DNA of 64,000 nucleotides from Escherichia coli (lineage in GTDB: Bacteria; Pseudomonadota; Gammaproteobacteria; Enterobacterales; Enterobacteriaceae), in assembly GCF_036507355.1 (NCBI RefSeq), contig NZ_AP027877.1; one strand, written 5' to 3'. A model generated the notes under the pieces. The model had not been told where the DNA came from. It was given only the letters and a program-made list of their open reading frames with translations, and ran no database searches. The position numbers and the translations under genes are program-made. Below, in pieces: positions 9,435 to 10,777 of this stretch (the first letter of the stretch is position 1; each line of letters begins with the position of its first letter).

Positions 9435-10435
9435 ATGAAAATGACTTTGCCGTTTAAACCCCATGTGCTGGCGCTAATTTGCAGTGCCGGGCTTTGTGCC
9501 GCCTCTACCGGGCTATATATAAAAAGCCGCACAGTGGAAGCGCCTGTGGAACCGCAATCGACACAACTGGCTGTGTCTGACGCTGCCGCGGTTACGCTTC
9601 CTGCAACGGTTTCCGCACCTCCCGTAACACCCGCCGTCGTCAAATCCGCATTCAGCACTGCACAAATAGATCAATGGGTCGCGCCCGTCGCGCTGTATCC
9701 CGACGCCCTACTTTCGCAGGTGCTGATGGCATCAACCTATCCGACAAACGTTGCTCAAGCAGTGCAATGGTCGCACGATAATCCACTTAAACAAGGCGAT
9801 GCTGCTATTCAGGCGGTATCTGACCAGCCGTGGGACGCCAGCGTTAAATCACTGGTGGCCTTTCCACAATTGATGGCATTGATGGGCGAAAACCCGCAAT
9901 GAGTGCAAAACCTGGGCGATGCTTTTCTGGCGCAGCCGCAGGACGTGATGGACTCGGTACAGCGATTGCGGCAACTGGCGCAACAAACCGGCTCGCTGAA
10001 GTCATCAACCGAACAGAAAGTTATTACCACAACGAAGAAAGCTGTACCGGTAAAACAGACAGTCACGGCACCCGTCATACCATCCAATACCGTTTCAACT
10101 GCCAACCCTGTCATTACAGAGCCTGCAACAACCGTCATTTCCATTGAGCCCGCCAATCCTGATGTAGTCTATATTCCCAACTACAACCCAACCGTGGTTT
10201 ACGGGAACTGGGCCAATACTGCGTATCCGCCGGTTTATCTGCCACCACCAGCCGGAGAACCGTTTGTTGACAGCTTTGTGCGCGGATTCGGCTATAGCAT
10301 GGGCGTTGCTACCACGTACGCACTATTCAGCAGCATCGACTGGGATGACGACGATCATGACCATTATCATCATGACGATGATAATTATCATCACCACGAT
10401 GGCGGTCATCGTGACGGTAATGGCTGGCAACACAA
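9435..10435 (+). pseudogene. yacH: yacH (DUF3300 family) 5' portion, carrying an in-frame TGA at 9900-9902 and ending where the IS element is inserted
   Basis: ORFs 9435..9902 and 9903..10454 are in the same frame, separated only by TGA; the frame then runs into the IS left inverted repeat at 10436. Confidence 0.85.
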
Positions 10436-10470
10436 TGAATCGCCACGGGTTTAACAGACACCTCAGAGTC
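10436..10470 (+). repeat. IS left terminal inverted repeat (IRL)
   Basis: TGAATCGCCACGGGTTTAACAGACACCTCAGAGTC; pairs with the reverse complement of 11630-11664. Confidence 0.85.
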
Positions 10471-10498
10471 ATTTAAGATGGCTTAAAGAGAGGTGCCC

Positions 10499-10777
10499 AT
10501 GAGCGGTAAGCGTTATCCCGAAGAGTTTAAAATTGAAGCAGTCAAACAGGTTGTTGATCGCGGTTATTCTGTTGCCAGCGTTGCAACACGTCTCGATATC
10601 ACCACCCACAGCCTTTACGCCTGGATAAAGAAGTACGGTCCGGATTCTTCCGCTAATAAAGAACAGTCAGATGCTCAGGCCGAGATCCGCCGTCTCCAGA
10701 AAGAGCTGAAGCGGGTTACCGACGAACGGGACATATTAAAAAAAGCCGCGGCGTACTTCGCAAAGCTGTCCGACTGA
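10499..10777 (+). CDS. IS3-family transposase OrfA (helix-turn-helix / leucine-zipper part)
   Basis: ATG at 10499 with RBS AGAGAGG; MSGKRYPEEFKIEAVKQVVDRGYSVASVATRL...ERDILKKAAAYFAKLSD, typical IS3-family OrfA. Confidence 0.88.
   Translation: MSGKRYPEEFKIEAVKQVVDRGYSVASVATRLDITTHSLYAWIKKYGPDSSANKEQSDAQAEIRRLQKELKRVTDERDILKKAAAYFAKLSD

Follow-up and report, generated by a model that had tools for sequence, protein, structure and literature searches.

A predicted programmed −1 ribosomal frameshift site in an ISEhe3-like insertion sequence that interrupts yacH in Escherichia coli

How a single transposase can be made from two overlapping reading frames that are one nucleotide out of register is the question raised by a locus in the Escherichia coli DNA analyzed here (contig NZ_AP027877.1 of assembly GCF_036507355.1; the whole stretch of 64,000 nt is called the window). 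An earlier note on this DNA had placed orfA in frame 2 and orfB in frame 1, exactly −1 relative to each other, and its coordinates, frames, and peptide all proved correct on rechecking. Our analysis leads us to conclude that the transposase is very probably made by programmed −1 ribosomal frameshifting in an intact, ISEhe3-like element of the IS3 family. The two frames are as follows:

10499..10777, + strand: orfA, 92 aa, helix-turn-helix (HTH) DNA-binding protein, the product of normal translation; frame 2; Pfam HTH_Tnp_1, E 4e-20, 72 bits
10744..11646, + strand: orfB frame entered by the −1 shift (300 aa), with HTH_21 and the rve DDE catalytic core; frame 1

Translation of orfA starts at ATG 10499, which is preceded 5 nt upstream by a Shine-Dalgarno sequence (GAGG, 10490-10493), and stops at TGA 10775-10777. 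The C terminus of OrfA reads ...ILKKAAAYFAKLSD, and is also given as that of a 92-aa protein ending ...DILKKAAAYFAKLSD. The GTG at 10493 given by the ORF lister falls within the orfA Shine-Dalgarno sequence. Behind TAATAA, the orfB frame runs without a stop from 10660 to TAG 11644-11646 and overlaps orfA by 118 nt, in agreement with the earlier note, in which it is open back to the slippery run. OrfB matches Pfam rve (E 2.5e-33, 115 bits) and HTH_21 (6e-15), and also rve_2. When 10499-10744 is joined to 10744-11646, the conceptual −1 fusion, OrfAB, is 382 aa long with the junction ...DILKK/SRGVLRK..., and it scores 437 bits against the NCBIfam equivalog NF033516 “IS3 family transposase” (cutoff, 160), aligning over profile positions 1-369 of 369. 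Because this alignment runs single and unbroken across the junction, the junction position is supported. Two overlapping ORFs with orfB in −1, an HTH OrfA, a DDE OrfB, and an above-cutoff NF033516 score are the IS3-family characters found at the protein level. RefSeq/PGAP annotates near-identical copies in the same way, as one two-piece CDS (WP_089518920.1, “IS3 family transposase,” “programmed frameshift”) that is the equivalent of 10499-11646.

The limits of the element were taken from comparison with uninterrupted E. coli yacH, as listed here (a slash marks the point of insertion):

10436..11664, + strand: complete IS3-family insertion sequence, ISEhe3-like, 1,229 bp; ends from comparison with uninterrupted E. 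coli yacH
10433..10435, no strand: left copy of the target-site duplication, CAA, 3 bp; E. coli empty site ...GGCAACACAA/CGGCGAC
11665..11667, no strand: right copy of the target-site duplication, CAA, 3 bp; from comparison with the E. coli empty yacH site
10436..10473, + strand: left terminal inverted repeat, starting 5'-TGAATCGCCACGG; 38-nt repeat pair, 74% complementary
11627..11664, + strand: right terminal inverted repeat, ending ...CCGTGGCGATTCA-3'; partner of the left 38-nt repeat

At the empty site, uninterrupted E. coli yacH reads ...GGCAACACAA/CGGCGACAAC..., and in the window CAA flanks the IS on both sides. The inverted repeats, 38 nt each, are imperfect and of the TG...CA type (TGAATCGCC...GGCGATTCA). 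Their 13-nt tips (TGAATCGCCACGG) are exact, and within the window they are present at the two IS ends only. With imperfect TG...CA repeats, a length of 1,229 bp, and a 3-bp duplication, 10436-11664 is an intact IS3-family insertion sequence of the ISEhe3-like kind. It probably belongs to the IS51 group, for which a length of about 1.0 to 1.4 kb and a target duplication of 3 to 4 bp are tabulated within the IS3 family (PMC10425158). The insertion disrupts yacH, which additionally carries a nonsense codon. Copies 99.8 to 99.9% identical in DNA are carried by E. coli chromosomes and plasmids, and their OrfA, OrfB, and frameshift region are identical to those in the window. Since the frameshift cassette is intact, as are the inverted repeats and the target duplication, this copy of the IS is probably still mobile, as judged from its sequence.

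ISEhe3, first described from the pPATH plasmid of Pantoea agglomerans, is a member of the IS51 group of the IS3 family with TG ends, a 3- to 4-bp duplication, and two CDSs (PMC10425158). The element in the window likewise has TG ends and two CDSs and belongs to the IS3 family. It shares 98.8% identity with one carried on a P. agglomerans plasmid and 89.4%, which is below isoform level, with a Shigella phage SfIV element labelled ISEhe3 orfA/orfB by its authors; these identities are to the plasmid and SfIV copies, and ISEhe3 proper would require 95% or more nucleotide identity with AF327445, the ISfinder reference. We take the element most likely to be ISEhe3 itself or a closely related sister element. 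ISEhe3 also appears among the ISs listed for the reference genomes of S. flexneri.

The place at which the two frames would be joined, and the structure that follows it, are given by three features:

10738..10744, + strand: slippery heptamer A_AAA_AAA, in the Lys81-Lys82 codons of orfA; zero-frame phase checked; homologous motif in 53 of 71 loci
10745..10749, + strand: spacer GCCGC, 5 nt, from heptamer to hairpin; the same GCCGC spacer stands ahead of the IS3 pseudoknot (PMC4066793)
10750..10785, + strand: predicted stimulatory hairpin, 11-bp stem and 14-nt loop; arms 10750-10760 and 10775-10785; minimum free energy (MFE) −16.0 kcal/mol

The sequence from 10730 to 10760 is GACATATTAAAAAAAGCCGCGGCG; a run of seven A's occupies 10738-10744, and G10745 comes next. 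As the earlier note had it, the slippery run lies inside the last codons of orfA; in the zero frame these are TTA (10736-38), AAA (10739-41), AAA (10742-44), and GCC, and A_AAA_AAA is therefore correctly phased for tandem tRNA slippage. An in-phase heptamer is thus found inside the orfA/orfB overlap, as a −1 frameshift signal calls for. Conservation of the site was assessed in species-representative genomes scanned with OrfB, which yielded 80 loci with OrfB identities of 63 to 99% in Enterobacterales, Alteromonadales, Pseudomonas, Acinetobacter, Aeromonas, Vogesella, Massilia, and other gamma- and betaproteobacteria. Two further plasmid copies, with OrfB 92% and 56% identical, were added, and motifs were counted over the 71 loci that have both ORFs (OrfB 56 to 99% identical).

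The −1 layout and an in-phase heptamer at the homologous position were present in 53 of these 71 loci, which goes beyond chance, as A_AAA_AAA in 24 and A_AAA_AAG in 29, a synonymous AAA/AAG difference in the second Lys codon. The exceptions include G_AAA_AAA (3 loci), A_AAG_AAG (3 copies in one Pseudomonas genome), A_AAG_GAG in Aeromonas, G_AAA_AAG, and A_AAA_ACG, most of which retain a shifty tetramer (A_AAG or A_AAA). In the remainder, 1-nt indels or small deletions show that the copy is damaged. The earlier description of A_AAA_AAA as the less usual heptamer did not hold up; together with A_AAA_AAG it makes up 72% of the heptamers in IS1- and IS3-family elements (PMC4066793), it accounts for the 24 conserved loci just given, and it is the motif used by IS600. 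The copy in the window lacks an upstream Shine-Dalgarno-like stimulator (GGAG, GAGG, or AGGA within 30 nt 5' of the heptamer), and such a sequence occurs in only 16 of the 71 relatives.

Downstream of the heptamer, the predicted stem is formed by GGCGUACUUCG (10750-10760) and UGAGGUACGCC (10775-10785), and its 3' arm holds the orfA UGA (10775-10777). Folded in isolation, the 36-nt hairpin has a z score of −2.4 (6 of 200 shuffles were at least as stable), and its stability of 0.44 kcal/mol/nt compares with a mean of 0.452 ± 0.124 kcal/mol/nt for stimulatory hairpins of the IS3 family (PMC4066793). Its first base pair is separated from the heptamer by 5 nt in the window and by 6 nt in the consensus. 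Stimulatory structures are expected to start 4 to 10 nt after the motif and to have at least 7.6 kcal/mol (PMC4066793), and the spacing of 5 to 6 nt and the energy of −16.0 kcal/mol found here agree with that rule.

Covariation was examined in 55 distinct homologous sequences aligned without gaps, with the 3' arm slid by 1 to 3 columns as controls. Standard pairs occupied 95.2% of the stem cells, versus 31 to 51% in the slid registers. Compensatory double changes were seen at 5 of the 11 stem pairs, in 24 cells, as in G10753:C10782 to A:U (7 sequences), C10752:G10783 to U:A (3), and C10759:G10776 to U:A (9). In 500 column shuffles, the covariation score and the tally of doubly changed cells were never matched, and the count of pairs with such changes was matched twice; these shuffle statistics are inflated by sequence kinship, 2 of the 11 pairs are invariant, and part of the conservation is protein constraint, the region being one that encodes protein in two frames. 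The slid-register control retains the same kinship and still separates cleanly. RNAalifold independently recovered the stem as 10751-60/10775-84. The signal is therefore conserved in both of its parts, by a heptamer kept at 53 of 71 loci and by covariation in the stem, and we infer that the hairpin stimulates frameshifting at the heptamer.

Comparison with named elements, which the earlier note had suggested for IS3 and IS911, places this hairpin more closely. IS3 of E. coli has the same two-ORF −1 layout and the same 5-nt GCCGC spacer, and its pseudoknot starts right after GCCGC (PMC4066793). In IS3 the region reads CCA AAG GCCGC GACAUACUUCG-(14 nt)-UGAAGUAUGCC UUUAU, and the window aligned to it reads UUA AAA AAA GCCGC GGCGUACUUCG-(14 nt)-UGAGGUACGCC UUUAU; in both, the orfA UGA lies inside the 3' arm and is followed by a conserved −1-frame ..YAFI... 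Because the spacer, stem, loop length, and embedded UGA align position by position, the hairpin in the window is a homologue of stem 1 of the IS3 pseudoknot. At the DNA level, however, IS3 aligns to the element over a 152-nt stretch only, at about 70% identity. The two also differ in that IS3 shifts on the tetramer A_AAG and the element in the window on the heptamer A_AAA_AAA, and in that a second stem is formed in IS3 by the loop bases GCCUGA with UCAGGC, some 15 nt beyond stem 1, whereas no equivalent of this stem 2 was found in the window.

IS911 resembles the window in its OrfA-OrfB −1 fusion at a Lys-Lys heptamer in an ..ILKKA.. region with structure downstream (PMC5009743). Its heptamer is A_AAA_AAG, with an upstream Shine-Dalgarno-like GGAG (PMC4066793) and a branched three-way-junction stem-loop, whereas the window has A_AAA_AAA, a simple 36-nt hairpin, and unrelated downstream sequence. 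IS600, of the IS3 group of the IS3 family, has proven −1 frameshifting on A_AAA_AAA with stem-loop stimulation (cluster A_AAA_AAA_1; PMC4066793). It shares its heptamer with the window but is a different element, likened to it here by the description of the motif.

A second pseudoknot stem was sought in several ways. Wider segments folded no better than their shuffles, with z = −0.27 for 86 nt (10745-10830) and z = 0.03 for 201 nt, the hairpin folded in isolation being the one distinctive structure. In the 201-nt MFE structure the A run paired with a U run at 10854-10862, a pairing that was rejected at 46% conservation. RNAalifold on 180-nt alignments added an outer helix of 10744-10749 with 10853-10858 that was 96% pairable without compensatory changes. 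Since this helix begins at the last base of the heptamer, it lies too close to act on a ribosome at the motif, and coding conservation probably accounts for it.

For an IS3-type stem 2, the best duplex of the loop with the 3 to 35 nt downstream had −6.8 kcal/mol in the window (P = 0.63), and the same test returned −11.4 kcal/mol (P = 0.01) for the IS3 control. An earlier version that paired the loop with 100 nt was powerless, as the IS3 control itself gave no signal. Among the relatives, 10 of 60 reached P ≤ 0.05 in the 3- to 35-nt test, the clade of the window not among them, and some distant relatives may retain an IS3-type stem 2.

Two pseudoknots of longer range were also considered and rejected. 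One would join CCGAC (10770-10774) to GUCGG (10829-10833), which lies 44 nt beyond the 3' end of the hairpin, but the pairing is kept in only 58% of cases (shuffle P = 0.12) and is broken without compensation in seven close relatives (loci L003, L005, L008, L010, L011, L013, and L017); the pairing of 10768-72 with 10838-42 is kept in 73% without clear covariation. ALIL pseudoknots, found in IS3411 and at least 27 other IS3-family elements, have a stem-loop 1 placed as in the window and a partner 44 to 104 nt 3' (PMC5009743). The 44-nt spacing of CCGAC:GUCGG falls inside that range, but the pairing itself is weakly conserved. No Rfam family, those of frameshift elements among them, matched 10600-10950 at E ≤ 10, and in 16 relatives the frameshift region gave no match at E ≤ 1. 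An ALIL pseudoknot was thus not recognized in the window, either as an Rfam match or as a well-conserved CCGAC:GUCGG pairing. As to the stem-loop or pseudoknot that the earlier note had left to be confirmed, then, the hairpin 5 nt downstream is present and covaries, and a second pseudoknot stem was not found in the window copy. We consider it unlikely that the A7 site departs from the textbook IS3 case by combining an ALIL-like CCGAC:GUCGG pseudoknot in the enterobacterial clade with a measurable share of OrfAB from RNA polymerase slippage.

Taken with the reading frames, these signals suggest the following course of events. Most ribosomes starting at ATG 10499 would reach UGA 10775 and release the 92-aa HTH protein OrfA, a type of protein that serves as a regulator in this IS family. 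A minority would pause with two Lys-tRNAs on AAA-AAA (10739-10744) and the hairpin (10750-10785) at the mRNA entrance. Both tRNAs could then slip one base 5' onto A-AAA-AA, where their re-pairing would be perfect, and reading in the orfB frame would resume at AGC (10744) to give the 382-aa OrfAB with its DDE catalytic domain. We infer the occurrence of the shift at this site, its efficiency, and its regulatory role from what is known of the family (PMC5009743, PMC4066793). In an E. coli reporter, A_AAA_AAA shifted at 0.41% without a stimulator; adding the IS911 stimulators brought this to 0.82% and adding the IS3 pseudoknot to 24.8%, and the corresponding values for A_AAA_AAG in the same series were 0.29%, 4.3%, and 39% (PMC4066793). 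Judged from these values, an A7 motif with a simple hairpin is expected to shift at low efficiency, probably in the per-cent range.

Other ways of obtaining a transposase from this layout have to be weighed against ribosomal frameshifting. RNA polymerase slippage at A7/T7 could add one A, and the resulting A8 mRNA would encode OrfAB (..LKK-SRG..) in one frame. The tract is a pure homopolymer of 7, and E. coli genes contain AAAAAAA less often than expected in all three frames, possibly as a result of transcriptional slippage (PMC4066793). Transcriptional realignment is believed to operate in many IS clusters, and two relatives (L014 and L021) have A6 in place of A7, which may reflect length instability or homopolymer sequencing error. 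However, 29 of the 53 conserved sites are A6G, which is too short for efficient polymerase slippage and is a classic ribosomal motif, and a covarying hairpin at ribosomal spacing has no role in such a model. Productive slippage in bacterial IS elements, as Baranov et al. reportedly described in 2005, uses runs of about 9 or more, against the 7 A's found here and the 6 at those 29 homologous sites. We therefore regard polymerase slippage as an improbable source of the transposase, although it may make a minor contribution to OrfAB.

Independent initiation of OrfB, for example at the GTG at 10834, would make a fusion unnecessary, and low-level independent OrfB synthesis does occur in some IS3-family members (IS911 and IS3), which counts in its favor. 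Between 10660 and 10833, however, the orfB frame contains no ATG, GTG, or TTG, and ahead of GTG 10834, the first such codon, no Shine-Dalgarno sequence was found. The −1-frame segment from the heptamer to 10834, including ..YAFI.. (TACGCCTTTATC), is moreover conserved in relatives and is part of the continuous match to the IS3 profile, and a product begun at 10834 would lose it. This route is thus highly improbable, and of the two findings that would have spoken against the frameshift in the earlier note, an orfB start with a ribosome-binding site and a slippery site that is not shared by homologous ISs, neither was seen: no start with a ribosome-binding site lies before or at GTG 10834, and the slippery site is conserved among those ISs. 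It is likewise extremely improbable that the two-frame layout is a frameshift mutation in a decayed copy. IS copies do decay, with indels or deletions at or near the site in six relatives (L014, L015, L018, L020, L021, and L076), and the host locus is itself decaying, yacH having both a nonsense codon and an insertion. However, the −1 layout and motif position recur in 53 of 71 loci in many genera at OrfB identities of 56 to 99%. The copy in the window has its repeats intact and is flanked by a target duplication, and both of its ORFs are full length and match a RefSeq protein of wide distribution exactly. Programmed −1 ribosomal frameshifting remains the preferred reading, and the IS3-family design proposed in the earlier note is borne out by the protein domains, the full-length NF033516 match, the RefSeq programmed-frameshift label, the conserved site, and the covarying hairpin.

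The frameshift site is ordinary, of a textbook kind, and already in public annotation for the same protein, and is thus not novel; its importance beyond correct annotation is small. For annotation, the locus should be entered as a single IS3-family transposase gene, joined by a programmed −1 frameshift (10499..10744, 10744..11646), together with OrfA, rather than as two unrelated genes or a pseudogene. The data set provides a clean, covariation-supported hairpin for the ISEhe3-like clade, and its homology to IS3 stem 1 is a small refinement. If distant relatives do keep an IS3-type stem 2 that was lost in this clade, the type of stimulator would have turned over within one IS lineage. The probable mobility of the IS also bears on the decay that the host genome is undergoing at the yacH locus.

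The insertion sequence (IS) carrying the frameshift site lies within a host gene that bears a further lesion of its own:

9435-12520, yacH (a DUF3300 gene), with acnB and lpdA as neighbours, one on each side

Because yacH is interrupted by the IS at 10436-11664 and independently carries a nonsense change, TGG to TGA, at 9900-9902 (CAATGGGTG in E. coli versus CAATGAGTG in the window), the gene is doubly inactivated. When a 1-kb yacH stretch was compared with complete E. coli genomes, none matched at 99% identity or above and the top match reached 98.9%, which suggests that the window comes from a Shigella-like or otherwise divergent, pseudogene-rich lineage. Immediately 5' of the insertion point, at 10340-10430, the sequence encoded by yacH is an Asp/His-rich tract of low complexity (DDDDHDHYHHDDDNYHHHDGGHRDG), and the DNA of this tract consists of short direct and inverted repeats (D1, I3, and I5).

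Matches to the IS are present in 2,549 of 5,426 complete E. coli genomes, with a copy covering at least 80% of the element in only 181, and plasmid copies show recurring truncations with breakpoints in common (e.g., query 313-1229 and 1-157). Most occurrences of this IS in E. coli genomes and plasmids are therefore fragments and not intact elements.

Several related loci from other genomes differ at the slippery heptamer. Three copies in Pseudomonas wayambapalatensis (L061, L062, and L063) and the Aeromonas loci L056/L084 carry A_AAG_AAG or A_AAG_GAG in its place, yet all retain the hairpin; one codon upstream, an A_AAG tetramer of the IS3 kind has apparently taken over in these multi-copy elements. 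L014 and L021 have A6 rather than A7, and small deletions have removed the A-run from L015 and L020. All of these length changes and deletions fall exactly at the homopolymer, and they could reflect either mutational instability of the tract or homopolymer sequencing error. L028 and L029, two contigs from one Pseudomonadales MAG compared over the equivalent of window 10738-10770, retain both A_AAA_AAA and the hairpin. Each has a -1-frame TAG 8 codons past the shift site (..CUU UGC UAG), so a shift at the canonical site could not produce a complete OrfAB. Either these copies are defective, perhaps, or shifting may take place elsewhere.

One further pairing encloses the whole frameshift domain:

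10744-10749 with 10853-10858, long-range helix, AGCCGC with GUGGUU

Across 60 homologues, 96% of cells at this helix were pairable and no compensatory changes were found. Since each arm lies within strongly conserved codons (Ala-Ala and ..SGF..), the helix may have arisen as a side effect of constraint on the coding sequence.

At the position of stem 2 of the IS3 pseudoknot (the equivalent of window 10789-10820), a loop-to-downstream duplex with p <= 0.05 was detected in 10 of 60 distinct relatives (L024/L025, L042/L043, L056/L084, L034, L063/L064, and L038/L041/L058), where about 3 would be expected by chance, and no such duplex at that threshold occurred in the window's enterobacterial clade. 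This distribution hints that the type of stimulator, pseudoknot versus simple hairpin, varies inside this IS lineage.
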